Positions 3,848-41,240 of a DNA stretch of 64,000 bases are shown here, in pieces; the first letter of the stretch is position 1, and each line of letters opens with the position of its first letter. Made by a program: the position numbers and the translations under genes. Source of the stretch: Dictyostelium discoideum (taxonomy: Eukaryota); assembly GCA_000004695.1 (NCBI GenBank), contig CM000151.3, positions 1,984,001 through 2,048,000 of the forward strand, written 5' to 3'. Under the pieces are notes generated by a model. That model made no database searches. It was given only the letters and a program-made list of their open reading frames with translations, and was not told where the DNA came from.

Positions 3848-4067
3848 ATGAATAAAAATCAAAATGATTGGAAAGTTGAATTAAGAAAAGCAACAAGATC
3901 AAGTTTAATTAGTATAACCAATGAAACAGATTTTCAATTACAAAGAATATCATGTAAATTACAACAGGGAATGTTAAGATTAATCCCACCAGGTATGTTA
4001 ACAAGTTTAATTATTTTATGTTTTTCCCCCCCTACAAGTGGTGTGATTGTTGACATTTTATTTTGTG

Positions 4068-4103
<36 letters not shown>

Positions 4104-7100
4104 ATTATACCACCAAAATCAAGCATAGAATTTGGAACAGAAAGTAATGCATTTATGACAGGTACAAAAGGATCAGTAATTTATATAGTATTACCACCAT
4201 CAAGTTCACCGATTAATGTTGGATCAATTCAATCATTAACTCATTTACAATCATTAAAACTTTGGGATCCATTAGTTTATATTATAATTGAATGGTCAAC
4301 ACCATATTGGTCACAACATAGTTGTAGTATTCAAGTACAACCACAACAAAATTCATCATTATTAAATGTTAAATCAAATTTATCACAAAGAGAAATTAAT
4401 AAACAAATTCATTCAGAAGTTTTAATGTTTATACATAATAATGATAGTAATGGTGAAATTCAATTTAAAATTTATAAAAATTCATTATCAAATAGTGGTA
4501 ATGGTAGTAGTGGTGGTAATAATAATAATAATAATAATAGTTTAAATAATAGTAATAATAGTATAGGTAGCAGTGGTGGTAATGGTGGTGGTGGTAGTAA
4601 TGGTTCATCACCAAGTATGTCACCACAATTTACATCAATTTCAAAAACAAATTCACCACAAATTATTAATACAAGTAGTAATAATTTAAATAGTAGTAGT
4701 GGTAATAATAATAAACCAATATTTTCAATTGTAGATAATGATTATACATCATCACAATCAACATCATCAATACCAGTAGTTGCAGGTATAAATAGTAATA
4801 GTAATAGTAATACTAGTGGTAGTGGTAGTACAAGTATATCATCACCAAATTCATCATTTTCATCAAGTTTACCATCATTTTTTTCAAATAATTTCCCATT
4901 ACCATGGTCAAATGATGGATTTGGAGTTGATGGTGGTTGGAAAGCAAATGTAAAGAGAGGATCACGTGGTCAATTTATAACGATTCGTAATAATACAAGT
5001 AAACATTTAATAAGAAGGAATCAAACATGTTTAAATAGTGGAAGATGGTGTGAACCACCACCAGAGGGTATACCACCCAATTCTATGATTGAATTTGGTT
5101 CGGTTAGTAGTGGTTTCACTACGGGTACTGATGGTGTAATTCATTATCATAGTCAAGGTTCGAAATCTGATTTTAGATTTCAATTTAATAATCCATTAAT
5201 GGGTAAATCATCATTCACCTATCATTGTCCAAATGGTTTCAATGTTGAAGAGAAATATACTGATGGTAATATCTCATCAGTATCATTCACAATTAATGAA
5301 GGTGATAGTCAAACAATTCCAAAACAAATACCTGATTCACCATTACCAATACCACCAATTAAAACTGATCCAAAACAAGTTTTCATAAATGATGATTCAA
5401 TTAGAATATTTTCATTTAATGTTGGTTCAATAAATGTTAAAGAAAGTGGTAAAGAATTAATGAATATTAATAATAATAATAATAACAATAATAGCAATAA
5501 TAATAATAATAATAATGATCAAAATAAAGATAAAGATAATCAAATGTTAAATAATTCAAATTTAATTAATAAAAGAATTGAACAAATTTCAAAGAATTTA
5601 ATTAATTTTTCAGAGAAATATGATATAATATTATTACAAGAAGTATTTTTAGATTCATCAAAAGATATTTTAATAAAGAATTTAAAGATTTATTATCCTT
5701 ATATTATTGATAGATGTGGTGAAAATTCGGGATTATTCTTTGCAAGTAGATTCCCACCACTATGGAATGAATTTAGACAATTTAATAATGGTATTGGATC
5801 TGATGTAAAATATGGTAAAGGTGTACAAGGTGTGAAATTGGATATATCAACCATTAAAGAGAATACTTATCTTTACGTTTTCAATGCAAATTTACAAGCT
5901 AATCCTGATAACTCAATCGCTTGGCAAATGGTGAATGGTGATGATAAGCAAAGGAAAGCAGCAACAGTGCGTACATTACAATTACAATCGATTCGTGATT
6001 TCATTTCAACGGAATTGGCAATGCAATCTTCAACCATTGCAAACTCTGCTCTATTATTAGTTGGTGATTTCAATTTAAATGCAGAGGTTGAGCAAGTCAT
6101 TTCCGATCATGAGAGTAATAGTATCACTCTCTCACAAATCATACCAGAGTTGGCAAAGAAAATCAATAGTAAAGAGATCACCCTAACTTTTAGTTACCAA
6201 TTGTTAGAGTATTTAAATGATTTAAATATTCCAATGAGATATTTAGGCATTCTAAGATCACAATTACAAAATAATCGTATGAAATCTTTGGTACTCACTG
6301 AAATGATCACCTATATCATCAAGAAGGATATCATTGAACATTTAACTCAACGTCATAATCAATATCAGTCAAATATTAATGAAGATGAACAAATCTATAG
6401 AGAGGTGGTATTGGAGACTTTTAATTTAATATTTCATTATACTAGAAAGGATTGTATTCAATTTTGGCGTCATCATCTTAGAAAGAGATTAAGATCCGAG
6501 TTTAGTTCATCCCTATCGGAAATTGAACAACAAGATTGGGTGGATTTAAGAACTCATGTAATTAATCTTCAACTATTTACAAGTTTAAAATATTCTTTAG
6601 AGATCACTTTTAATCCAAAAGCTGTTTTCCAAATTATGAAAGGTTCAAGAATAAATACAAAAGAAATCATACCCATACCATTGATTTTACCTGAACAAAT
6701 CGAAGAAATCATTTTACCACCATTAACTTCTTATTGGGGTTCAGATTCAAATACTGATATAAATTATTTTACAAATATTGATCATTTAAAAGAACAACAA
6801 AAAAAACAAGCTCAATTACAACAATTACAACAACAACAAGCTCAACAACAACAACAAGCTCAACAACAAACCCAACAACAACAAAATTCAAATATAAATA
6901 TAATTAATACAATAGAATCATCACAAATTCAACAAAATAATAATATACAAATTTATTTGAAACAAACTGATGAATATAATAATATGTTAAAGATATTAGG
7001 TAATCCTGTTGATTTATTTAGAGAGTCTAATCCATTTTCACCAGGTTATACAATTCATCAATCTTTAAATCAACGTGTTGAAAAACCTTCACTCAAAGAA

Positions 7101-7280
7101 CGTGTAGATTATATATTAAACTTTAAATTATCTCCAAATTTTGGTGATCATGAAGGTAGAAATCAATTATTAAAATTGGAATGTACTGAAACTAATATAG
7201 TTCCAATGGGTGCAACTCCTCAAACTAGATTATCAAATCATTTTGCATTAGAATGTATATTACATATTAAAAAGAAATAA
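3848..7280 (+). CDS. Endonuclease/exonuclease/phosphatase (EEP) superfamily protein, neutral-sphingomyelinase-like, with a long low-complexity N-terminus; join(3848..3992,4102..7280), about 1108 aa
   Basis: Exon 1 ends ...CCAG|GTATGT. The 109-nt intron is poly-A rich and ends AAAAG|AG, preserving the frame (G+AG=Glu). EEP motifs present: SFNVGS, DIILLQEVF, LLVGDFNLN, and a C-terminal RLSNHFALECIL. Poly-N, poly-Q and Gly/Ser tracts. Confidence 0.7.
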
Positions 7281-8057
7281 AGAAAAAAAAAAAACAAATA
7301 AATAAAAAACACAAATAAAAATTTATTATTTTATATATAAATAATAATTATTACTTTATTTTAAATAATTATTTAAAGAAATAAAAAATAAAAAAGTAAA
7401 TTTTAATCATTTATTTTAATAATAAATATTATTATTATTATTATTATTATCATTTTTTTTTTAATTGACTCTCCTTTCTGTATTTTTCATACTTTAATTA
7501 AAAACACTTTTTTTTTTTTTTTTTTTTTTTTTTTGTTGGTGGGACATGTGTTATTTCTATTTTTATATTAACACATTGGTTTTTTTTTTTTTATTATTTT
7601 TTTTTTTTTTTTCTATTTTTATTTTTATTTTTTATTTTATTTTTATTTTTATTTTATTTTTTTTATTTTTTTTTTTTTTTTTGTAATCTGTTGGATAGAT
7701 ACATAATAAATCTATCACATAAAATTTTTATTATTTATTTTAAACAAATTAAAATTAAAATTAAAATAAAAAGACAATATATATGAAATCAAAAAAAAAA
7801 AAAAAAATAAAATAAAAATATAAATAAAAAAAAAAAAAAAAAAAAAAAGGAAATAAAAAGAAGAAAAATATTAATATCCTTTTAATTGTTGAAACTATAA
7901 TTATAGTTAATATTTATTGATAGTTAAATTGTAATAGTAAATTGTGTAACATAAATTCTTAATTAATTAAAACAATAAAAATAATTAAAAATAATTAAAA
8001 TAATAATAATAATAAAATAAAAATAATAGTAAATATAATAATTTTATAAAAAATAAA

Positions 8058-8121
8058 ATGCCTCGATATTTTTATATATTTAATGAAACAACTTATGATA
8101 TGGATCTTAAATTAGCATGTA

Positions 8122-8164
<43 letters not shown>

Positions 8165-8456
8165 TATTTTTTATTATTTTTTTTTAATTAAAAGATAAAT
8201 AAATAACAAATAATTTAAAATTTTTGATATAGATGTAAGCTTTAAAGACCCATTTTCAAAAATTAGAATATCATTTTGTATTTTATTTTTTATTATATCA
8301 TTTGCAAGTTTATATTTTGGTAAAAGATCATATGATATTAGAAAAAAACCGACCTTTTTTACAGTTATAGCTATAATAGATTCAATAAGTTCTGCTTGTA
8401 TGTTTATTTATTTATTTATTTTTTATTTTTAAAAAATTTTTTTACATCATTATTAA

Positions 8457-8491
<35 letters not shown>

Positions 8492-9555
8492 ATAGTAAAG
8501 GTATTAGTTTTAGGAACCGAATTTATTAAACCAACTTCATTTATACAAATTGGAATTTCATCATTTATTTTTAATTTTAATTATATTTTGGTTCATATAT
8601 CAGTATCAGCTTTGGTATTTTATTGGTTTTATTTTTATTTCTATTTATTATTTTTTTGTTTTTTTGATAAAAAAACAAAATTTAATTTATACTTTTTTTT
8701 ATTTTTATTTTTTATTTAGGATTCATAAATATCATGATCATATAAAAAAACAATCAAAGAGTTGGTCATCAATGTTTATATGTGTAATATTTTTAATGTT
8801 TAATACATTTGGAATTTTAGTTTGTTTTGTTTATGCATATTGTGAAGCAAATAGGTTATGTGATTCTCAATTTTATAGGTCAACAACATATATAGTAAAT
8901 ATAATTTACTTTTTAGCTGATGTTTGTTATGCAGGTTCACTATTTGTTTATGGTTTTTTAATTGGTAAAAATCATAAAAAATCAATGGGTGTATGTATAA
9001 TAATTTTTATTATTTTTATTATTAAATTATAATTATTATAATTTTTATTTTTACATATTAATATTTTTTTTTTAAAAAAATTAAACAAAATAGATATTAG
9101 TTTGTTCAATTGCATTAGGAGTTACATTTTTATATAATGCAGTTGAATTATTTACAACAGCATTTATATCATCATTAAATGAAGTTCAATCAATGTTATT
9201 CGATATAACTGATTTATTAAATATAATTATTATTTATTTATGTGTGATTGGAATTGTTCATTTTGATACAGAAGTAAAAGTTAGATATTTAAAAAAATTG
9301 GAAGTTCCAAATCCTGACAAAGAAGAAAATATCAGTAATTCTCATTATATTCAAAATATAAATAAAATTACAAATGGTGATTTCAATTATAATAATAATA
9401 ATAATAATATTAATAATAATAATAATAACAATTTACATCGTCATCAAAATCATACTGGTGGTGCTGGAGGTATATCACCAATCTCAATTTTTAATAATGG
9501 TAATAATAATAATATTAATAATAATAATAATAATAATGGGAAAACTGCCATTTAA
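8058..9555 (+). CDS. Multi-pass transmembrane protein of unknown family, at least 5 exons. Confident exons: 8058..8118, 8233..8397, 8720..8990, 9094..9555. A probable exon 3 starts at 8496; its 3' junction is unresolved
   Basis: ATG 8058 MPRYFYIFNETTYDMDLKLA|GTAAGA; acceptor ATAG|8233 gives YVSFKDPFSKIRISFCILFF...DSISSA|GTATGT (8398). Frame-2 segment 8496.. (LKVLVLGTEFIKPTSFIQIGISS...) is residue-diverse. Good acceptor TTTATTTAG|8720 leads to ...KKSMG|GTATGT (8991). Acceptor AAAATAG|9094 leads to ILVCSIALGV...FDTEVKVRYL...NGKTAI*. No canonical GT donor links the 8496-frame to 8720 in phase. Confidence 0.45.
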
Positions 9556-10415: not shown

Positions 10416-13400
10416 ATGGAAAACTTTAAATATAGAAATAATGAAAATGATGTTGCAATTATTGGTATTGGATTTAGATTACCAGGTTGTAAAAATTTTA
10501 CACCAAATGAATTATGGAATAATTTAAAAAATGGATTTAATGGAGTGGTTGAATTAAGTAATAGATGGAGTGACAATTTCTATACAATGGGTAAAGTTAG
10601 TAGTGCATATGCTGGTTTATTACCATTTGACGAACTAAAATCGTTTGATCCATTATTTTTCGGTATTAATCCAACAGAAGTGCCAACAATTGACCCACAA
10701 CAAAGAATATTATTAAAATGTACATGGGAAGCATTTGAAGATGCTGGAATTGATCCAATTAAAATCCGTGGTTCAAATACATCGGTTTTCATTGGTACCT
10801 CAACTAATGATTATCAAAGAATCATTAGAGAAAAAGATCAAACAATTACAAATGCATTTGGTACATCTTTACATGCTACATCAAATCGTATTTCATACTG
10901 TTTTGATTTTCGTGGTCCATCAATGACTCTTGATACTGCTTGTTCTTCCTCTTTAAATTGTGTAAAATTAGGTTATCAATCAATTAGAGATGGTACTTCA
11001 AATTTATCAATTGCTGGTGGTGTAAATTTAATTATTGGTAAATTATTATTTTAATAATTAATTAATTATTATTATTGTTATTTTAAATTAATTTTTTTTT
11101 TTTTTTCTTTTTAGATCCATACTTTACTGCTAGTATTTCCGATTTAAATATTCTTAGCAAAACTGGTTCATGTAAAACATTTGATGCAAGTGCAGATGGA
11201 TTTGCACGTGCTGAAGGGTCTGGTATAATTGTTATGAAGAATTTGAAACAAGCAATGATTGATGGTGATAAGATTTATTGTGTAATTAAAGGTGCTAGTT
11301 CAAATGTAGATGGTGGTGGTTTACAAGATAAATCCAATTTTTATGCACCATCATCTTTATCACAATGCAATAATATTAAGATGGCATTAAAATCAACTAA
11401 TGGTACTGTTGAACCAAAAGATATTTCATATTTTGAATGTCATGGTACTGGTACACCAACTGGAGATCCAATTGAAACTAGAGGTATTTCAATGGTTTTT
11501 AATGATGAAAGTCGTTCAAAAGAAAATCCATTATTAATTGGTTCAATTAAATCAAATATTGGCCATTTAGAAGCTGGTTCTGGTATTGCTTCATTAATTA
11601 AATGTTGTTTAATGTTTAAAAATAAATGTTTTGCTCCAAACATTAATTTTAAAGTACCCAATCCTAAAATTAAATTTGAAGAATGGAATTTAAAAGTTGT
11701 AACTGAACCAATTCAATTCACAAAATCAAATACTTGTATTGGGTTAAGTAATTTTGGTGTAACTGGTTCAAATTGTTGTTTAATTTTATCACAATTTAAC
11801 AATAATAATAATGATAATCAAATTGTTGGAAATAATAATAATATCAAATCAAATAAAGAATATCTAATACCATTCTCATCAAATTCTGTTAAATCATTAG
11901 AAAACTATCAACAATTGTTAATTAAAAATGGTGAAAATGAATTTAAATTTTTAGAATTTATTAAACATCAAATTTTTACTAAACCAACCTCACTTTATCA
12001 ACGTTCTGTAGTTATTGCATCAAGTTGGGATCAATTTAATAATGCCAAGATAATGAAAACATCAAATTCAAAATCATCAAATATTTCAATTGAAAGAAAT
12101 AATCCAATAACTGTATTTGTATTTTGTGGTCAAGGTTCACAATATGATAGAATGGGTTTGGAATTATATAATAATGATTTTATTTTTAAAGAATCAATGG
12201 ATTTATTGGATAATAAATTATCAAAATATTATGGTTATTCAGTTTTAGAGAAATTAAGAAATTGTGATTCAAAATCAATTCAGCATCCAATGATTGCTCA
12301 ACCTGTAATGTGTATGTTTAATATATCATTATTTGAATTGTATAAACATTGGGGTATAGAAGTATCATTTATAATTGGCCATAGTTTAGGTGAAATTCCA
12401 GCAGCATATTGTTCAGGTATGATTAATATAGATACTTTATGTTATTTAATTTATCATAGATCAATCGCACAAACTAAAACCCATACCAATGGAAGAATGT
12501 TATCAATTAATATCAGTGCAGATGAATACTTTTCACAATATTCTAAACAATATCCAGATATTGAAATTGCATGTTTCAATTCACCAACTTCAATAGTCAT
12601 TGCCGGTAATGAACAAAAATTAAACGAAATTTCTGAAATTCTAAAAGAAAAAGGTATATTTTCAGCAATGTTGGCTTCACTATCATCATTCCATACAAGT
12701 AGCCAAAATAAAGTAAAAGAGGATATTGTAAATAAACAATTTGATTCTAAACAATCTGAAATTCCAATATTTTCTACAGTTACAACAAATTTATTCGATT
12801 CAGTAACATCACCATTCAACTCTAGTTATGTATTTAATAATATAGTTTCTCCAGTTAAATTTTCACAAACAATTTCAAATTTATATAAACATATAGAATC
12901 AAATCAATTAGGAAATGATATCGTTTTCATTGAATTGGCTCCACATCCAACATTACAATTTTATTTAAAACAAATGATACCAAAACCAACTAATGATGAT
13001 AATTCAATTGAATTTAAAGTTTCAGTTTATTCAGCACTTAATAAGAAAAACAATGATATTGAAGAAATTCAAAGAACCATCTCACAATTATATTGTGATA
13101 ATGGCTATAATGTTAATTTTAAATGTCAATTCCAACATGATGATACCCATGGATCCATCAATTCAAATATCAATCAATTATCTAATATTAGTTTACCACA
13201 TTATCAATGGGATGATGAAAAATATTGGAAAGAAGATCCAAGTATTTCCAAACTTATTGTAAATGGTCCACAAACTGATAATTTAGGTTATTTAAATGAA
13301 AATTCACCAAATTCCAAATCATATGAAACATTTATAGATATTAAGAGACCACCATTCCAATATTTAAAAGGTCATATGGTAAAAGGAAAATACTATTTCC

Positions 13401-16400
13401 CAGGTTGTGGTTATATTGATAATTTATTAAAAATATACAAATCACAAGATTTAACAATTAATCAAATGGGATTTAAATCACCATTAATTTTTATAGAAGG
13501 TGTTAATCAAGCTTTACAAACAAATATATTTAAAAAATCAACTTCTAACACCACCACCAATAATAATGATGAATTTAGAGTTGAATATCATTTTAATGAT
13601 CAAAAAACAAATCGATGGATTTTATCATCATTTGGTGATTTTCAATTATCAAATCATTCAAGTAACTCTGATAATTTAGAAAAGATAAATATTAAACAAT
13701 TAATCCAAAATCAATGTAATTTAACAAAATTATCAAGGGATGAATTGTATAGTCATATAAAATCTAAAACAGGTTTAACATATAATGGTGTATTCCAAGG
13801 TGTAAATAAATGTTATCTTGGTGAAAATTGTTCATTATCAGAGGTTTCATTAGAATTAAAGAGAGAGCCATCATCATTTTTCAATACTGCTGTATTAGAT
13901 ACATGTTTACATGGTATGCTTTGTTTGTTAGAGGAACAATCTCAATTGGTGTTTGATAGAATTGAAGGTTTTAAATACCATTCTTCAAATGTACCAACAA
14001 GTGAAGAAGAAATGAAAATACATTCTAATATTTATGTTTACTCTACTATTAATCCATCAAGAATTGGTGATTCATATTCTGCATCAATTGTAATAATGAT
14101 GGAAGATGGTACGGTTTTAATTGAAATTGAAAATGCAGTTTGTACATCTTTAACTCCAATTAAAGAATCAATATCAGTTAAATATCCAACTAATCAATTA
14201 TTTTCAATGTATCTTCAATCTAAAGATTCACCAATTCCATCACCATTAAATTTCAAATCATTATATAATCAAAACCAACAACAATTAAAAATAGATAAAC
14301 AATTTACAGATTGGATGCAAAAATGTGAAAAATTCATTTCAAATCAATTCTTTAAAAATATTGAAAAAAGAAATCCAGAAATTAATTTAGAAATTTTAAA
14401 TTCAAAAACCATTATTGAATTAAAATCAAAATATTGTCAAAATTTAAAAAATGAAAGATTATTTCAATTTGTTTTTGAAACTATTAAACAACTTGGTGTT
14501 AATGCCTATGATGATGATGATGATTTAACAATTGATTCAAGTGAAGATAGAAAAAGTATTTATGAAATTTTAATAAAATCAACTAAAGTAATTCCAAAAT
14601 TATTATTCCCATTAGAGGATGAAGATTTAACAATTGATTCACCACAATCTCTTTTTGAAAATGGTTTATTGGATAGATTTTATAATAATCCAAATTTAAT
14701 GACAAATCAATGTCAGCTTATTGCTCAAATTATTAAAGAATCTTTAAAACCATTATTAAATAAAAAGATGGTATTTAGAATTTTAGAAATGGGTGGTGGT
14801 ACATGTTCATTATCAGTTGTTGTATTAAATTTAATTAATCAATTACTTTTAGAGAATCCTTCATTTGAAATTGATATAGAATATACTTGGAGTGATATTT
14901 CACCATCGTTCATCTCAGCCGCTAAAGAAAAACTATCACATATAGATAAACGTATAAATATTCTATATCGTTCAATTGATATTGAGCAACCATTTATTGA
15001 AAAGCAAGATCTTAGTCCATCATATTATGATTTTGTAATAATGTCAAATGTATTACATGTTGTAAAGAAATTATCACCAAGTTTAGATGAAATTCATAAA
15101 ATACTCACTCCAAACGGTCATTTATTATTTGTTGAAATTCCATATAAAGAACTTATATCTGATAGTATTTTTGGTGCATTCAATCAATGGTGGGCATTTG
15201 AAGACACTGATATTAGAAAGGATAGATGTAGTATACCACCAAATCAATGGATTCAAGTTTTGTCGAATCACAATTATAAAGATACTATAGTCTCTGATAA
15301 TAAAGAATGTACATGGTGCTGTTTTGTTATTCACTCTCAAAAACCATCACTTTTAGAACTATCAAAAAAAATTGAATGTAATCAATATGATAATATTATA
15401 GTTTTTGGAAATGAAAATAGTCAAGATAATTTCACCAAATCTATAAAATTATCATATAATAATAATATAATTAAATGGGTATCAAATATTGTAGAAATTA
15501 AAAAGTTTATTAAATTAAATATTATTACAAATAATTCAATAATTTATTTTACAAAAGGTATTGAAGAATTAACAATTGATAATTTCAAATTAATTAATTT
15601 CCAATATATTCAAATTAATCAATTATTATTAAAATATGAATCAAAATGTAAAAATGTATTGGTTACTCGTGATTGTGATGGTTCAAATTATTTAGCATCA
15701 TCATTAATCGGTGCAGCAAGATATTTTGATGAATATCGTCAACTTGAATTATTTACTTTAGATTTTGATAATGATACAATTCAATCATGTGATGAATGTA
15801 GTAGTAGTAGTTGTAGCAATTTAATTAAATTAATTGAACCATTAATTGATCCAAAAATTAATATTCAAAGAGAATTTTTAATTAGAAATAATCGAGTTTA
15901 TTTTGAAAGAGCAAAATTAGAAACAAATTTAAAGAAATCTTTTAAATCTGAATCATTTGAAAATAGTAATAAATTAATTTCAACATTAAATTTTAATTTA
16001 GATTATCAATTACAATCCAAACCATTTAAACAATTACTACAAAATGAAATTGAAGTTGAAATTAAAGCAACAGGTATTAATTATAGAGATTATTTAGTAT
16101 TTACTGGTTCTTTACCAATTGAAAAAACTAATCATAATGGAATATCAAATCAACCTGAATTTGGTGTTGATTTTTCTGGTATAGTTACCAAAGTTGGTGG
16201 TGGTGGTGGTAATGGAGAATTTAAAGTTGGTGATAGAGTTTATGGCATTGGACATAATACAACATCATCACATATAACAATTGATTCAAGATATGCTAGT
16301 TTAATACCAAATAGTTTAGATTATATTGAAGCTTCATCAATAACATCTTCATATATATTGTCATTGTATGGTATTTTTGATATTGGTAATTTAGATATTC

Positions 16401-18148
16401 AAGATAATGAATCAATTTTAATTCATTCAGGTACTGGTGGTATTGGTTTATCAGCATTAAATTCATTGAGATGGAAAGGTCATAAATCCCATCTATTCGT
16501 TACTGTTAGTTCAAAAGAAAAAGAACAATACCTTCGTGATAATTATGGTTCGTTCATTACAGGAATTTATTCAAATAAAGATAAGAACTATCCAAAATTA
16601 ATTAAAGAAAAGTTAAATCAATTAGGATCAAATAAACAAGGTGTAGATTTAATATTAAGTAGTTTACCAAATGGTGATGATAATTTAAATTTTAAATGTT
16701 TAGCAAAGAATGGTAGAATAATTGATCTTTCAAATAATATTGATTTATTTAATATTAGTAAAAGTAAAATTAAGAAATTGTTAAATACAATTAATGATGG
16801 GTTTGAAAGTGGTGAATTACAAGTGATACCAATTATTGAATTTTCAAACTCAAATATTAGAGATGCAATTGAATTTATTAATGAACGTCAACATATTGGT
16901 AAAATAGTTATATCTCATGATGATTCAAATCTATTAATTGATTTAATTAATAAACATTCAAACCAACCAAATTATTCAATACTAAAATCAGATTACCAAA
17001 TTTCTCAATCAAATTTAGGTAAAAATATATTAATTACCGGTCAATCAGGTATAGTTTTAGAAATTTTAAAATGGATTATTAAATTTTCAAATTCAATTGA
17101 AAATGTTATAATTTTATCAAAATCATTAATGAAATGGGAATTGGAATTATTAATTGGTAAAACAATGAAAAAAGCAAATAACAAAATTAAATTTCATTTC
17201 AAGAGTGTTGATGTAAGTGATTCAATACAAGTTGAGAATTCAATTAATCAAATTTTAAATGATAATCCAAATATTGTAAATATCGATTCAATTTTTCATT
17301 TTGCATTTACTCAAATAACTAAAAAAGTTGAAGAAATTGATATGGAAAGTTTAAATGTATCTCATAATGCCAAAACTATTGGTGCAATTAATTTACATAA
17401 TCAATCAATTAATAGAAATTGGAGATTGAATAATTTTGTAATGGCATCATCTGCAACATCAATCATTGGTTCAACCGATCAGTGTAGTTATGTTTGTGCA
17501 AATACTGTATTGGATTCATTATCAAAGTATAGAAAATCAATTGGGTTGCCATCAATTTGCACAAATTATGGTGCTATTGAATCAGCAGGTTTCGTATCAA
17601 AGAATGAATCTGTTGCGGCAATGTTTAATGGTATTGGAATTATTTCAATCTCAACCGATTTAATATTGGGTACATTGGATTTACAAATTCAAAATCAACA
17701 ATCTTCAACCAATTTAATGTTGAGTGATTTTAATTTTTTAAATTTTGTAAATAATAATTTACAATTATCATTAATCTCAAAATTTGATTTCCAAACTAAT
17801 TTAGCTAAAAATCAAGTTAATGAAAAATTACAAAACCAAACCCAAAATCAAAACCTTCAAATTCAATCACCATCATCAACAACTGATTGTCAAACAATTA
17901 TTAAAGATTCATTTTTACATAAAATTTCTGAAGTACTATCAATTGATATTTCAAAATTAAATTTGGATTTGAAATTATTAGACTATGGTGCTGATTCTTT
18001 AGCAATTGTTCAAATTAAAAATTGGATCGATATGGAAGTATCACCAAATTTAATTGTCATTCAACAACTTCAAACTTTTACAATAACTTCATCCATTCAA
18101 TATACAATTAATTCATTTTTAAAGAAAAAAGTTCAAAGCCAAGAATAA
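10416..18148 (+). CDS. Highly reducing type I iterative polyketide synthase (KS-AT-DH-cMT-ER-KR-ACP); join(10416..11037,11115..18148), 2551 aa
   Basis: KS: DTACSSSL active site, then GGVNLII|GTAAAT. A 77-nt intron ends ...CTTTTTAG|ATCCATAC. AT: [16 protein letters not shown]: [15 protein letters not shown]-MeT: [12 protein letters not shown]: [17 protein letters not shown]: [17 protein letters not shown]: [17 protein letters not shown]. The protein ends ...KKKVQSQE* with no type III PKS (Steely) tail. Confidence 0.9.
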
Positions 18149-19431: not shown

Positions 19432-20583
19432 CACTTTTTACTTTTTACTTTTTTTATTTATTTATTTATTTAATAACTAACAGTCCATTTTCTAAAATAA
19501 ATAAATAAATAAAAAATTTAAAACATAAAAAATAATAATAATAATAAATTTATAAAAATTCAATTTAAATATTTATATATTAAAAAAATAAAAAATAAAA
19601 AATAAAAAAAATAAAAAAGATTTAAGAATGATGGTAGAGATTTAGGAATTTTAATACAATTAGAATCAAAGATTGGTGAAGAAGTAGGAGCATTTAAAAT
19701 AGAGAATTCAAACTTAACAAGTATAGACTATCCATTATTAAAATCATATGGTATGAGTCCTGAAATAGAGAATAGTGGTAGTGGTAGTAGTAGTGGTAAC
19801 AACAATAATAATAATAATAATAATAATAATAGTTTGGTACATGGGGATATAAATATAGAGGAATTAATAAAGAATATGACAATCGATCAATATTACGATA
19901 ACAAAGTATCAATGATGAATATCGTTGATCTTATGCCCGGTAAAGAGATTACAATGATTTCAAAATATTTAAAAGAATTACCAACTATAAAAACTAATAA
20001 CAATAATAATAATAATAATAGCAAACCAAATCCAAATATAGATAGTAGTAATGGAGATGAGATAATATCGATAACCATACCGAAACAGACATCAATAACA
20101 TCACCATTCCCACCAATAAATATAGAGATTACAATCGATGGTGAAGTTAGTATACCACTTCACTCATCGGTATGTCCATCACATCCATCATCAATTTCAT
20201 CATTGACCCTATGTGAGAATATCATATCATCGAAACATGATATCAAAAGTAATTCCTTATTGAATGATGATTTCAATTTACTCATTGGTTTAGAATCAGA
20301 ATTGCATCACAGTGGTTGGACAACATGTACATTATCACCCTCCTCATCACCTCCATTATTATCCTCCTCTCCAAATTCACTACCACCAACCACTGTAATT
20401 TCAACTTTGATAAATTTAAATCAACCAACACCACCACTTGTCGATAGAGTTTCTTTTAACAATGTAGAATATAGTCTAAATAGTTCATCAACAACAACTA
20501 CATCTTATAGTAATAATAAACAAACTATAATTTATAGTTTGAATAATAATGATAATAATACAAATAATACAAATAACAATACA

Positions 20584-20614
<31 letters not shown>

Positions 20615-21955
20615 TAATTTTAAAGTATAATAATAACAAAGAATTTAACCTTTTATTAAAAACCCCAACTTTACCCTCTTCATCGAGTATTTTAAATAAA
20701 TTTTCTTCACTTTCAAAAATTCAACAATTATGTAAAAATAATGATAATAATAGTAATAATAATAATGATAATAATAAAAATAATGATAATAATAATAAAA
20801 ACAATGATAATAATAATAATAGTAATATAGATACAGGTACAGGTTTAGATATAGGTACATTATTGAATATAATATTCACAACATCAAATAATAATAGTAA
20901 TTTAGTAAATAATAATAATAATAGTAGCAATACGATAGTGTCACCACTTTCACAATCAGCACCACCAATTAATAATAATAATAATAGTAATAAAGATATA
21001 TCAATGATTGAACAAAATATAACGACAACATCATCACCACCAACAACAATAACAACAACATCACCACCATTACCAAAACTTCAAGAATCTGGTGAACTTT
21101 TATCAAATATGTTATCGAATTTACCAAAAGCGAAATTAGGGGGATTAAATCAACAAAGTTTAACAGCACCACCATCAGTTGGTAAAGATCTTTCAAATCC
21201 AATTGCAGATTTCATAGCAAGTAGAGCTGCAGCAGGTGGTTCAAGTGGTAGTAATAAACCCAAGAAGGGACCACCACCTAAATTGGGTGGTTTAGGTGGT
21301 GGGTTGAATACCTCAACAGGTGCAGGTGGAATTGGTGATGTTAGAGTACAAAGATTGGCAAGTTATAATAAAGTCAACCAATTATGGAATGTTTCATCAT
21401 CAGATTTTGCACAACGTGTTTCAATTACCCTAAGAGAACTTGAACCCTATGCAATTGATTATGCATTGTCTCATATTAAATCAAAGTGGTGGGACAAGAA
21501 TAGGATAGCAACACTAGCTGAAATCAAATGTATACATTCTATAATCTCTTCAATCATTAATAGTCCAAAAATTAATTTAACATATATTTCTCCATCATCA
21601 TCATCATCAACAAACTCTTCAAATTCAGACGCAAAAGATCAAACATCAACCACTACAACCACCACTACATCATCACCAACTCCAAGTGCTTCAGATGTAG
21701 CAGCAAGTAGATTTTTATTACAAAAAGGTAGTTTTACTGATTTAACAAAATTAATGGGAAAACCACAATCATCATCATCATCATCATTATCACCCTCATC
21801 TTCACTCAATCCTTCACCATCAACCTCATCAAATTCTTTATTATCACCATCATCACCAAGTAAAACGAGAAAAGAGGTAGAGATGGAAATTGATCCAGTA
21901 AAACTGAGATGGATTGTTGAAGAAGTTTTAAATGGTGAAAAAGCGTCAATAGAGA

Positions 21956-21999
<44 letters not shown>

Positions 22000-22919
22000 G
22001 GTAATAAATGGTTTAGTGTAAGTATTGGAGAAACAAAAGGAGGTAGACCTCATATGGAGGATAATCATGTTATTCTTGAGTATCCATATGAATTATATGG
22101 TTTAGAGAAAAAGAAAAGTGTAGATTCAATAGCAGGTGCAAATAGTAATAGTAATAATAATAATAATAATAATAATTGTATAAGTATTTTATCATCAAAT
22201 GAACAATTCTTTTTTGGTGTATTTGATGGTCATAATGGAAAGATAGCAGCTGAATACTCAAGAGTTAATTTACCTTATGAAATTTTTAATAGCTTTATAA
22301 AAATTAACAAAGTTGGCAACAGCGCAAACAATAACAATGTTGATGATTTATGTTTGGAGGCTATCAAACAAGGCTATTTGAATACAGATAAATACTTTTT
22401 AGATTATGCAGAATCTGATAATAAGAAAGCAGGTACAACAGTTGCAACAGTGATCTTGGAAAGAGAAAGATTTATCGTTTCAAATGCAGGTGATACAGAG
22501 GTTGTATTATGTTCAGGAGGCATTGCTGAACCATTGTCAATCATTCATACACCAAAATTAGATACTGAAAGAATACGTATAGAGAGTGCTGGCGGTTCAA
22601 TCATTCATTATGGTACACTAAGAGTCAATGGTTTATTGTCAGTATCTCGTTCCATTGGTGATAAGAATTTAAAAGAATTTATTATACCAAATCCTGATTC
22701 CCACATTCACAATATCAATAAACCCAATGACCAATTCTTAATGATTGCAACTGATGGTCTTTGGGAAGTTTTTAACCATCAAGATGTAGTCAATGAAGTC
22801 CTAAAATTATTACAAGATAAAACTATTCAAAAAGATGATATCTCTTCAATCATTGTTGAAGAAGCAATTAAAAGAAATTCAAAAGATAATATAACTTTAA
22901 TAATTATTTTCTTTAACCA

Positions 22920-22926
<7 letters not shown>
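19225..22926 (+). CDS. Large low-complexity protein with a C-terminal PP2C (PPM-type) Ser/Thr phosphatase domain; join(19225..19364,19620..22926), about 1149 aa
   Basis: Exon 1 MVLNLVSDENGLDISFISYNVTFIDRCAQFTVTLKYKNLSSLPLPL + AA|GTACAT (phase 2). Acceptor AAAAAAG|A at 19620 restores the frame into ...FKNDGRDLGILIQ...MSPEIENSG.... PP2C motifs: GGRPHMEDNH, FFGVFDGHNG, NAGDTEVVL, ATDGLWEV. Poly-N, poly-S/T and GPPPKLGGLGGG tracts. Confidence 0.65.
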
Positions 22927-36829: not shown

Positions 36830-39503
36830 ATGACAAAACCAATATTTAAAAGTAAAACCAAACCATTAGGGTGGTCTAAAATATCAAGTAAGGAAGTTAT
36901 TAATGAAGATGAAGAAGAAGAGGAAGGAGGAGAAGAAGGAGGAGAAGAAGAAGAAATAGATAATAATAAAAACAGTAATAATAGTAGTAGTAATAGTAAT
37001 AATAATAATAATGATAACAATAATAACAATGGTGAAGAAAGGAAGGTAGAAAAAGAAGAAGAGAAAGAAGAAATTAATCATTATAGAAATCAATTTGAAA
37101 AAGATTTATTAGATATGGAATTAAAAGCATTAAATAGAGAAACAATTGATAATATTTTAAGTGGTTTAAATTCCTATGAAATTTTTAAAGAAGTTAATTT
37201 CGATTTTGAAAAGTTATATTCAATAATTATTAGTGAACCTCCACCATTATTTGATACTTTCTTTGATTCAGTATCTTCATTTGAAATCTTCTTTACAGAT
37301 TGTTTAATTCTATTATGTAGTAATTTCCCAGACGGTATTGATACATCAATTACACGTCCAAATTTTAATGATTTTTATAATCATTTTAAAGATAGGTTAG
37401 TAGTATAGTAATAATAATAATAATAATAACTATTATTATTTTTCACTGATTATAATATTTATAAAATAAAATTACTAATATATTTCTTTTTTTTTTTTTA
37501 AAAAAAAAAGAGGAGTTATAAATAAATATATTTCAAGAGAAAATATTCACAAAGCATTAAATGATAAGTTAATGACAGATTATTTTAATTCAGGTATATA
37601 TTTAGGATTGTTGGATACTTTAGATATAGCAGCCATTAGATTTATAACGATATTTGGAAAGTTTTTATCATATGAGGTTGTAGAGACAATCAGTAATTCA
37701 TTATTTAGATATAGAACAGACAAAATTGAATTTCTATCAGATATTATTAGAGAATTATTATTATGTAATGAAAAATATAGAACATTATCAAAAAGTTACG
37801 ATTTAGTTCAAAAGAGATTACAAAAAGAAGAATTTACATTTATTAAAGTGTTTGAAGATGATGATCCAAAATTATTCTCAGCATTATATCAACCCCCTGA
37901 TATAATCAAGTTAATTACAGAACCAGAAAAAGATTCAGGGTTTTGGTGTATGATTGGAATATTTAAATCAAAGAGGATTTTAGATTATCTTATAAGAACT
38001 GAACCAAGTAAGAGTTGGTTCAAAGGTAAAGAATCTGATTACTTTTTTTCAATAGCGGAAATGGGTGGAAAATATTTCAATTGGACATTATTGGAACCAA
38101 AATTAATTAAAAAGGAAGTTAATCAGAAATCATTAAAAGGTGTAATACCACCAAGGGAATTGAATAGTCAACAACGTAATACTCAATTCTTTCGAGTTTT
38201 CAATGGAGTTACAGGGTTCAATGATATACGGTTTGTTTATGCCAATCCATCATTAGCTCAACATGCAATAAAATTTATTCAAAAGGTGACTGAATGTGGT
38301 CTATTTTTAAATACTGATGTAAGAAATGTTAGAGATTCCATACCAAATTCCAATAGTTTTCTATTTAGAAAATTCTTAGAGGTTAATTTTTTCTATAGAT
38401 ACGAAAAAGACAATGAGGTATATCAACATCAACCAACTGAAGAAAACTCACTCTTATACTCAACATCAATCATTTCAAGAATTGTGGAAATGGAAGTAAC
38501 TGATCTTTTATCAGTGGTTCTTAAAAATTTAACTCAACAAGGTTGTTCATTAGCACGTGAAGCCGTTGATGAGAGATCTTTGTTAAGTACAATTCATTCG
38601 GATAAATACTATAATAGTTCAATTGTGGTATTACATAATTATTGGCCAATTCCACCAAAGTTTTGTGATTGTTCAACATCATTTATTTCAATGGCCAATG
38701 GTAAATTGCCTAGAACCTATTCTGGTAGCGATGGTGTTATACCTTATATATTTTTCGCTAGAAATCATTTAACACTTGGATTCTTACTATCAATTCATAA
38801 TAATATCACCGATACCATTGATATTAATCATTGGATTTCCGTTGCGATATCTGGTGGACTTTATTATGACAAAGAGGAAATCTTTAGGAAATATCCATTA
38901 CTTCAAAAAGAATCTACACTTCAAAAATATCCAAGACCAGTTAATATTTTAGAATTTCAAACTTTATTAGAAAATAATGAGTGTATCGAATATATCGCCA
39001 GAACTTTCATTAAAGAAATTCCACCTCATGAAGTACCAACTGTTAAACATTCAGATTTACTCATACTCTTTGAAATTTCAGTTATGAAAAAAAGATCAAT
39101 TAGATCAAAAGAATCACTTCAAGCTGAATTAGATTTAATTGAAGAAGAAAAAAGAGAAAAGAAAAAACAAAAAGATAAAAAGAAAAATAAATCAAATCAA
39201 AATCAAAAAAATAATAATAATCAAAATAATCAAAGTAATAATAATAAAATAAATTCACCATCATCAAATAAACTCACTCAAAATGTTACTCCACCATCTT
39301 CACCTGTAAATATAATAACTTCATCATCAACTACATCATCAAGTACATCATCAACAACATCATCAACAACATCATCAACTATAGAACCAAAACCGCCAAC
39401 ACAAACATTACCAATAAAAACATCATCACCAACCAAACCAGAATCACAAAAACCATCAACTCCTGATCCATTAATCCCCAAATCTTCAAAATCAACTACA
39501 AAA

Positions 39504-39581
<78 letters not shown>

Positions 39582-39708
39582 GAAAATAGAGAAATGGCTT
39601 TAGAGGTTATAAATGAAATGGAAAAAATTGAAATTGAGGAATCATTATTATCAACATCTTCTTTGGTACAACCACAACAACAATCACAACAATCACAACA
39701 ACAACAAG

Positions 39709-39800
<92 letters not shown>

Positions 39801-41240
39801 GAAAAACAACAAGAACAACAAGAACAACAAGAATCTATTCAATTAAATCAAACCCTAACACCAATAATACCAGATTTTCAAATTGGTAAATTTAAATTTA
39901 GTAGAGACGAAAATAATATAATAGGGAGAGGATCAAATGGTACATTAGTATTTAGAGGAATTTGGAATGACAGAATACCAGTCGCTGTTAAACAAATGCA
40001 AAAAGCTTTCAATCCTCATATTAGTAAAGAGATTGAAGTATTAATTCGTTTAACGAGTAATAATTGTTCAAATATGATTAGATATATAGATCAAGAAGAG
40101 GATCAATTATTTGTTTATTTAGGTTTAACTTTATGTGAAGAGTCATTACAAGATTTAATGGAATCTAAAAGGTATAAAGAATTTATAGAGAAAACCACCA
40201 CTACCAATATTACAACGACTTTTAATAATAATATTATTGATGAAAATTTATATGAACAAAGAATATTAAGTCTTTTTAAAGATGTTATTAATGGAATTAA
40301 CTTTTTACATTGCCAAGATATTGTACATAATGATTTAAATCCAAGAAATATTTTAGTACATAAGGGTAACTTTGTTATATCAGATTTAGGACTTAGTAAA
40401 ATGCAAGTTGAAACATCATATTCATTTACAAATAATGCACCAACTGGTCAAGAAGGTTATCATCCAATTGAAGTACTTCAAGAGAAACGTAAAACTAAAT
40501 CAGTGGATATATTTTCATTGGGTTGTATTTTATTTTATCTTTTAACCAATGGTCAACATCCATTTGGTAATAATAAATTATTAAGAGTTGCAAATATTGT
40601 CTATGATAAACCAGATTTAGAGCCATTGAAATTTAATGCACCTGCCTTGGATTTAGTTAGATTAATGATTTCCCAAGATGAAAAGAAAAGACCAACCATT
40701 GATACCATACTTAATCATCCATTGTTTTGGTCAACTAATGAAAAAATCAAATTTTATGAATCTTCTTTAAACCTTTTAAAAGATCCAAATAATTCTCAAT
40801 CAAAACATAGTAAACTATTGAATTATTATCAAAATGATAATAGTGGTGGTGTATTATTTTTATCAAAACCTTGGAATCAAATTATTGATCCATTTTTAAT
40901 TGATCATGTTGAAAATAATAATAATAATAACAATAACAATAACAATAATAAACAAAACTCTAAAAAGTTAGCAATAGTTGCATATCAATACGATCAAGTT
41001 AGAGATTTAGTTCGTTGTATTAGAAATTCCTTGGTTCACCATAAGGATATATTAAGATCAATCACTCAACAACAAAACTTACCCCCATCCTCAAAGGAAT
41101 TTGCCAATGATTGTCTAAAAAGTCAAGAATCTGTACTATTATATTTCGAATGTAAATTCCCTGACCTATTATTTCATTTATATCAACAATTTAAAAAATC
41201 AGATTTCAATTCTAAAGATTATTTAAATATAAAGTTTTAG
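36830..41240 (+). CDS. IRE1-like protein (Ser/Thr kinase + C-terminal KEN/RNase-L-type ribonuclease domain) with a long non-lumenal N-terminal region; join(36830..37395,37511..41240), about 1431 aa
   Basis: Exon 1 ends ...HFKD + AG|GTTAGT (phase 2). The 115-nt intron ends AAAAAAAAAG|A. Kinase: [12 protein letters not shown]...[34 protein letters not shown] domain: [14 protein letters not shown]...[10 protein letters not shown]...FPDLLFHLY, matching human IRE1 HPFFWS...RNKKHHYREL...FPHLLAHTY. No signal peptide or TM. Poly-N(32) and poly-Q(40) tracts. It resembles the irl (IRE-like) family, but member identity is not determinable from sequence alone. Confidence 0.8.
39513..39581 (+). repeat. 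(AAT)n microsatellite encoding poly-Asn in the IRE1-like gene
   Basis: Seen directly in the sequence. Confidence 0.9.
39706..39830 (+). repeat. (CAA)n microsatellite encoding poly-Gln in the IRE1-like gene
   Basis: Seen directly in the sequence. Confidence 0.9.

Follow-up and report, generated by a model that had tools for sequence, protein, structure and literature searches.

pks13 of Dictyostelium discoideum as a probable stand-alone gene for an iterative, highly reducing polyketide synthase

Introduction

The social amoeba Dictyostelium discoideum has 40 polyketide synthases (PKSs; the DdPKSs), and products have been named for only three of these, Pks1, Pks5, and Pks16 (PMC12828403). Pks16 is described as the main fatty acid synthase (PMC12828403). 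Here we describe pks13 (DDB_G0272981), the gene for a related enzyme, which lies in a 64,000-nucleotide stretch of DNA (hereafter the window; GC content about 23%) at positions 10416..18148 of the plus strand, and is recorded on chromosome 2 of D. discoideum AX4. An earlier note, made from the letters of this DNA, had read the gene as a complete highly reducing type I PKS and had suggested that it might form a small metabolite locus with two upstream neighbors, an atypical sphingomyelinase-like hydrolase of the EEP family and a multipass membrane protein. We find it very likely, instead, that pks13 is a stand-alone gene for an iterative type I highly reducing PKS (HR-PKS), and that the EEP gene and the seven-transmembrane (7-TM) gene beside it are independent conserved genes.

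Several features of the family are relevant to this comparison. Just over half of the DdPKSs (21 of the 40) end in a C-terminal offloading domain (PMC12828403), polyketide production in D. discoideum requires the phosphopantetheinyl transferase DiSfp (PMC12625978), and PKS genes have undergone lineage-specific expansion (PMC3188802). pks13 is itself already annotated, both as a gene of the reference genome and as a UniProt entry, and counts among the 40 DdPKSs. Work from 2025 is said to have produced AlphaFold 3 models of the whole set.

Results

Gene model and domain architecture of pks13

Two plus-strand open reading frames (ORFs) underlie pks13, one of 212 codons at 10416..11054 and one of 2304 codons at 11234..18148. 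The splice between them was chosen by enumerating GT..AG pairs, the criterion being that the canonical ketosynthase (KS) sequence [38 protein letters not shown] be restored. In the resulting model, exon 1 (10416..11037) carries the N-terminal part of the KS, with the codon for the active-site Cys176 at nt 10941-10943; a phase 1 intron of 77 nt (11038..11114; GTAAAT...TTTTAG) falls within the KS domain; and exon 2 (11115..18148, stop codon included) encodes the remainder of the KS and the acyltransferase (AT), dehydratase (DH), C-methyltransferase (cMT or C-MT; MT for short), enoyl reductase (ER), ketoreductase (KR), and acyl carrier protein (ACP). The spliced product, of 2551 aa, is exactly identical to XP_644907.1 / Q559A9, "Probable polyketide synthase 13" of D. 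discoideum AX4, which bears out the single intron that had been proposed within the KS. The D. firmibasis and D. citrinum orthologs have an intron, of 81 nt and 135 nt respectively, at the same position. Three other D. discoideum strains have near-identical copies of Pks13; across the four strains and both other species, the reading frame of 7.65 kb is unbroken.

Pfam matches recover the order KS-AT-DH-cMT-ER-KR-ACP with one copy of each domain, that is, a single module. The KS (10446..11650, aa 11-386, across the intron; PF00109 E=4e-70, PF02801 E=8e-31) is followed by a KS C-terminal extension and has the Cys-His-His triad C176 (DTACSSS), H317 (HGTGT), and H358 (NIGH). The AT (12113..12979, aa 541-829; PF00698 E=1.5e-41) has Ser631 in GHSLG, Arg668, and a family-type "SFHTS" motif. 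Matches to the DH (13358..14155, aa 956-1221) are weak but significant (PF21089, PF14765), with H961 in HxxxGxxxxP and D1136 in DxxxH. The ER (16043..16912, aa 1851-2140) is matched by PF08240 (ADH_N, 1851-1917) and PF13602 (ADH_zinc_N_2, 2049-2140), and the motif [10 protein letters not shown] at 1978 is among those named in the earlier note. In the KR (17030..17581, aa 2180-2363; PF08659 E=7e-26), K2294, S2320, and Y2333 align with the catalytic residues of mycobacterial mycocerosic acid synthase (MAS); its Rossmann motif, TGQSGI at 2182, looks unusual yet is typical of the family, Pks16 (PDB 9NJU) having TGQTGI. The ACP, of HR-PKS type (17879..18142, aa 2463-2550; PF23297 E=8e-31), carries the phosphopantetheine-attachment residue Ser2502 in GADSL. 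No release domain was found by Pfam after the ACP, whether a thioesterase, a reductase, or a chalcone-synthase tail.

The embedded C-MT (14768..15271, aa 1426-1593; PF08242) has LEMGGGTC as motif I at 1431-1438, a family variant in which Cys replaces the last Gly, together with H1522 and E1548. It aligns with the biochemically characterized C-MTs of CurJ, PsoF, PksCT, and LovB (E=1e-18 to 3e-14), and the "NVLH" His and downstream Glu of the C-MT dyad are conserved in that same alignment. The C-MT is conserved and active-looking. Domains and catalytic motifs together bear out the earlier description of the enzyme as a complete type I PKS of the highly reducing kind in which a C-methyltransferase is embedded, and each of the catalytic motifs that had been named could be located at defined residues.

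Relatives and selection

Close orthologs of Pks13 were found only in D. citrinum (84% identity) and D. firmibasis (80%). The remaining matches are paralogs at 58% identity or less; the best from D. purpureum, at 53%, is no closer than the paralogs of D. discoideum itself. In a neighbor-joining tree of the KS-AT region, the three Pks13 orthologs group together and are nested among many orphan dictyostelid PKS paralogs, a placement that agrees with the published lineage-specific expansion (PMC3188802). The earlier note had held that a KS grouping with the many orphan paralogs would speak against a metabolite locus, and this is the grouping recovered. The surroundings of Pks13 in the tree are PKSs lacking MT and ER and PKSs with a reductase tail, from the same chromosome region. 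In each species, several PKS paralogs also lie within 14-35 gene models of pks13 (e.g., RB653_010286, RB653_010317, ACTFIU_008717, ACTFIT_002682); this PKS-rich region suggests local duplication.

Among D. discoideum, D. citrinum, and D. firmibasis, synonymous divergence (dS) is 0.37-0.57. The ratio of nonsynonymous to synonymous divergence (dN/dS) for the whole gene is 0.17-0.22 across the three species pairs, and pks13 is therefore maintained by purifying selection. The MT, at 0.09-0.13, is among the most constrained parts of Pks13; the ER, at 0.20-0.27, lies above the KS, MT, and KR, and far below 1.

A clade-specific deletion in the ER

The ER of Pks13 retains its NADPH motif, HSGTGGIG. 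At a site specific to the Pks13 clade, however, 21 residues are missing from the D. discoideum protein after S2080 (nt 16730-16732). Between the NADPH motif of the ER and the Rossmann motif of the KR, most members of the family have about 224 residues; D. discoideum Pks13 has 203, and its two orthologs have 213-214. In alignments, the segment missing from the clade is "(I/V)TH(L/M)...(F/Y)(K/R)(Y/F)xxxY," which normally follows "GRIxDLS"; Asn-rich filler occupies its place in the orthologs of D. citrinum and D. firmibasis. Retention elsewhere is nearly uniform: the segment is present in 93 of the 98 homologs that bear the anchor, and the five without it are all Pks13 (from three strains of D. 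discoideum and from the two other species). Pfam, in addition, does not detect PF00107 (ADH_zinc_N) in D. discoideum Pks13.

It is conceivable that Pks13 is a decaying paralog, its ER dead or its function wholly lost, and that the deletion marks this loss. The confinement of the deletion to the Pks13 clade, the undetected ADH_zinc_N domain, and the dN/dS of the ER, which together with that of the DH is the highest among the catalytic domains, are all in keeping with such a history. We nevertheless consider it unlikely. The frame is intact in four strains and two further species, the whole-gene dN/dS is about 0.2 with that of the ER far below 1, and the NADPH motif is kept. Moreover, the AlphaFold 2 (AF2) model of the Pks13 ER is confident (predicted local distance difference test, pLDDT, of 87) and resembles solved ERs, with TMq of 0.83 to the ER of Pks16, the best solved match, and about 0.78 to those of JamJ and CurK. 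A paralog ER modeled as a control shows the extra segment as a loop, of pLDDT below 50, with no more than a two-residue bridge after it. Because the segment is a low-confidence loop in this control and includes no core strand, the models indicate that the deletion probably trims a loop and leaves the fold unbroken. A reading of the deletion as the loss of a Rossmann core strand was dropped, since the same control shows a low-confidence loop.

The ER may or may not be active after this deletion, and the claim that all seven domains are intact therefore needs qualifying: it holds for the motifs, but the ER carries a clade-specific gap of 21 residues. Given this lesion, full saturation should not be assumed when the product of Pks13 is predicted. 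As a separate observation, one group of paralogs (e.g., P0022, P0029, P0032, P0034) has a degenerate ER NADPH motif, HLGSDGFG or HLSSDGFG, which suggests that some Dictyostelium PKSs have naturally inactive ERs.

The adjacent 7-TM gene

The gene immediately upstream of pks13, DDB_G0272923 (8058..9555, plus strand; exons 8058-8118, 8233-8397, 8496-8625, 8720-8990, and 9094-9555), encodes a protein of 362 aa with seven hydrophobic segments that is exactly identical to XP_644906.1. One of its introns has an unusual donor, GTTTTA (8626). The multi-TM gene that had been proposed at these positions is thus real, with five exons; to call its product "novel," as the earlier note did, is an overstatement, as it belongs to an annotated family restricted to dictyostelids. 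UniRef names three of the 7-TM proteins "THH1/TOM1/TOM3 domain-containing," despite the lack of a match to that Pfam domain at E<=1 for the D. discoideum, Tieghemostelium lacteum, and Heterostelium album proteins and at E<=0.001 for that of D. purpureum. A transporter domain was likewise not detected by Pfam.

Homolog searches with the EEP and 7-TM proteins returned very few clusters; that with the EEP protein gave four hits, without the D. discoideum AX4 entry, and that with the 7-TM protein missed a D. firmibasis ortholog that is visible at the locus; absence from these lists is therefore no evidence of absence, and the conservation of the neighbors was judged by inspection of loci and by an exhaustive profile search with the 7-TM protein. 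The profile search recovered relatives only in T. lacteum (E=5e-17), in H. album (E=6e-8), and in one environmental sequence. In D. purpureum, the ortholog (61% identity) has the same upstream neighbors and is then followed by a HIT-family gene, and inspection of this locus revealed neither a PKS nor a PKS remnant beside it.

These data bear on the possibility that DDB_G0272923 and pks13 form a two-gene unit, in which the membrane protein would be dedicated to the product of Pks13 as its exporter, receptor, or membrane anchor. In D. discoideum, D. citrinum, and D. firmibasis, the two genes are indeed next to each other and co-oriented, with about 750-860 bp between them. Yet this conserved order weighs little and is the default expectation, because the three species are so close (the dS values above) that synteny extends to PP2C and PEMT downstream as well. 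The 7-TM family, furthermore, predates pks13, as the T. lacteum and H. album relatives and the PKS-free D. purpureum locus attest, and the protein has no detected transporter domain. A dedicated partnership is, on this evidence, very unlikely. Also very unlikely is a more elaborate scenario in which the ER deletion switched Pks13 from a saturating to a non-saturating enzyme with a methylated, polyene-type product (cf. the dictyodenes of Pks5) that the adjacent 7-TM protein could handle at the membrane; if this were true, pks13 and the 7-TM gene would form a two-gene unit of recent origin in the lineage of these three species.

The EEP gene

Farther upstream, the EEP gene (3848..7280, plus strand; intron 3993..4101) encodes, in our model, a sphingomyelinase-C-like protein of 1107 aa. 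This model has no exact counterpart among deposited proteins, and the annotated model may differ from it. The Pfam match to Exo_endo_phos is weak (E=1.4e-5; 25.4 bits against a cut-off of 24.5), and the best solved relative is the sphingomyelinase C of Bacillus cereus (PDB 2DDR, E=5e-4). The EEP gene described in the earlier note is real, and it has a single intron. In the bacterial enzyme, we take the catalytic residues to be E53, H151, D195, N197, D295, and H296. In the alignment to PDB 2DDR, E53, D195, and N197 are kept and the H151 position is Asn; toward the C-terminus, an unaligned reading by eye finds "SNH" where "SDH" would be expected (Asp295 to Asn). The protein may be a lipid-binding one that is non-catalytic or has an altered chemistry. 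Its N-terminus holds a module of about 100 aa ("...IPPxSxIEFGxxSxxFxTGTxGxxxY") twice, with no Pfam match, and the sphingomyelinase-C-like domain that follows seems to be split by an insert of about 330 aa with a polyQ tract. The gene is conserved in D. firmibasis, T. lacteum, and Cavenderia fasciculata.

Gene order around pks13

The neighbors end 860 bp (7-TM) and 3.1 kb (EEP) upstream of pks13, all three genes being on the plus strand, in line with the roughly 900 bp and 3 kb given earlier. The pks13 locus of both D. firmibasis and D. citrinum has the gene order MFS (plus strand), saposin-GDSL lipase (minus), PALP (minus), 7TM (plus), PKS13 (plus), PP2C (plus), and PEMT (plus), and no EEP or plip sequence was found within 10 kb of pks13 in either species. 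The EEP ortholog of D. firmibasis stands directly after plip at 2.26-2.28 Mb, about 350 kb from the pks13 ortholog at 1.90-1.93 Mb of the same chromosome. In D. citrinum, the genes to the left in our window (Rsa3-like, adh_short, plip, EEP) and those to the right (7TM, pks13, PP2C, PEMT, DnaJ/zf-MYND) are on different contigs. From the gene order in these two species it follows that a breakpoint specific to the D. discoideum lineage joined plip-EEP to 7TM-pks13; it lies in the intergenic stretch 7281..8057, between the plip-EEP block on the left and the 7TM-pks13-PP2C block on the right. A search of this stretch found no tRNA and no obvious repeat.

Both neighbors thus have conserved orthologs elsewhere, which the earlier note had named as a finding adverse to its metabolite locus, and for this reason both must predate pks13 and be independent genes. 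Their proximity to pks13 reflects ordinary gene order together with a D. discoideum-specific rearrangement. The small metabolite locus is contradicted by these data, with EEP elsewhere in D. firmibasis and no PKS beside the 7-TM gene of D. purpureum; that the EEP hydrolase, the 7-TM protein, and Pks13 jointly make, modify, or export one metabolite is scarcely credible, for although the three genes are co-oriented within 15 kb and TPS-P450 clusters do exist in D. discoideum (PMC6524965), EEP is linked to plip and absent from the pks13 loci of the two close relatives, its orthologs extend to T. lacteum and C. fasciculata while those of pks13 were found only in the two relatives, and two of its catalytic positions appear to be Asn.

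The remainder of the window is also unlike a biosynthetic cluster in content. Among the Pfam-matched ORFs of the window, there are no tailoring enzymes (no P450, halogenase, O-MT, thioesterase, or known transporter). Mostly housekeeping genes, these ORFs encode Rsa3-like, short-chain dehydrogenase, PP2C, PEMT, DnaJ/zf-MYND, Vps54, FNIP-repeat, RPS4, IRE1-like kinase/RNase, Vps5, Exo70, and PRP21-like proteins; several other ORFs have no Pfam match. The lone short-chain dehydrogenase ORF adjoins the plip phosphatase in the unrelated block, as it does in D. firmibasis.

Three further observations concern genes other than pks13 and its two neighbors. The PP2C gene is represented at 19753..22926 by an ORF of 1057 codons with a C-terminal PP2C domain and no exact deposited match; with 1108 aa in D. 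citrinum and 1122 aa in D. firmibasis, the gene models of those species are longer, so the true start probably lies upstream and involves an intron. The ORF at 37572..41240 encodes a protein kinase of 1222 aa that has a Ribonuc_2-5A domain at its C-terminus, an IRE1-like architecture, and is unrelated to pks13. In D. firmibasis, an extra gene model of 327 aa with no Pfam match lies between pks13 and PP2C (locus L001, 18006..19077, minus strand); no counterpart was found in the D. discoideum window or in D. citrinum.

Discussion

A probably independent HR-PKS gene

The apparent locus, then, is an accident of gene order, and pks13 is therefore to be treated as a stand-alone gene; the more general statement in the earlier note, that amoeba PKS genes are usually stand-alone, is supported. 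Three points weigh against this reading, or at least temper it. First, the adjacency of the 7-TM gene and pks13 in three species leaves room for a functional link. Second, the ER deletion leaves the degree of reduction, and hence the saturation of the product, uncertain. Third, full-text searches for Dictyostelium pks13 or DDB_G0272981 gave nothing relevant and no report of a product. That pks13 is a stand-alone gene for an iterative HR-PKS, flanked by independent genes, nevertheless remains, in our judgment, very probable.

A tentative scheme for the enzyme can be drawn from the established mechanism of fatty acid synthases (FASs) and HR-PKSs and from the literature. Ser2502 of the ACP would be phosphopantetheinylated by DiSfp, an Sfp-type transferase, and the AT would load malonyl units. 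The KS (C176/H317/H358) would then carry out repeated decarboxylative condensations, extending the chain iteratively, while in some rounds the cMT would place a methyl group derived from S-adenosylmethionine on the beta-ketoacyl intermediate, at its alpha carbon. The KR and DH would reduce and dehydrate, and the ER, if still active, would saturate the resulting double bond. As Pks13 has no C-terminal release tail, the chain would be freed by hydrolysis or by an enzyme acting in trans. The expected product would be a linear polyketide acid, C-methylated and either reduced or partly unsaturated. The view that this product is not predictable from sequence is supported here: as for most Dictyostelium PKSs, the question of what Pks13 makes is not one that sequence analysis can answer. 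The significance of the gene itself extends little beyond bookkeeping, and the useful outcomes of this study are negative or incremental.

Comparison with known systems

The best solved full-length relative of Pks13 is Pks16 of D. discoideum (cryo-EM structure PDB 9NJU; E=0, 1533 bits). The two enzymes have the same domain order, closely similar KR motifs (TGQTGI and TGQSGI), the same ER fold (TMq 0.83), and no C-terminal release domain. They differ in that Pks16 retains the ER segment that Pks13 lacks. Further, active C-MTs match the MT of Pks13 at E<=0.01, but the MT region of Pks16 does not.

Also related are the orphan HR-PKS paralogs of D. discoideum, some of them on the same chromosome, which share 52-58% full-length identity with Pks13 along with its architecture and motif variants, and which form the groups nearest to it in the KS-AT tree. 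Here too there are differences in domain content. The full-length paralogs nearest to Pks13 (P0020, P0021, P0025, P0030) end in an NAD_binding_4 (thioester-reductase) tail, which Pks13 does not have, and the sister group in the tree (P0047, P0056, P0070, P0073) lacks the MT and ER that Pks13 has.

Outside the dictyostelids, fungal HR-PKSs such as LovB (PDB 7CPX) resemble Pks13 in that they work iteratively and consist of a single module, ordered KS-AT-DH-cMT-ER-KR-ACP. Over KS-AT-DH, LovB matches Pks13 at E=6e-123; identity is low outside KS-AT. LovB has a condensation domain and an inactive ER. In the methyltransferase, the likeness extends to PksCT and CurJ, in whose C-MTs the His/Glu dyad and the S-adenosylmethionine motifs align with those of Pks13. 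Fungal HR-PKS genes, however, are normally clustered with tailoring and release enzymes, and pks13 is not. Animal FAS and mycobacterial MAS share with Pks13 a type I architecture, an ER of MDR-type fold, and a KR of SDR-type fold. They also differ from it: MAS has no MT (PMC12828403), and in animal FAS there is a thioesterase as well as a pseudo-methyltransferase that is inactive, where Pks13 has a conserved, active-looking C-MT and no thioesterase.

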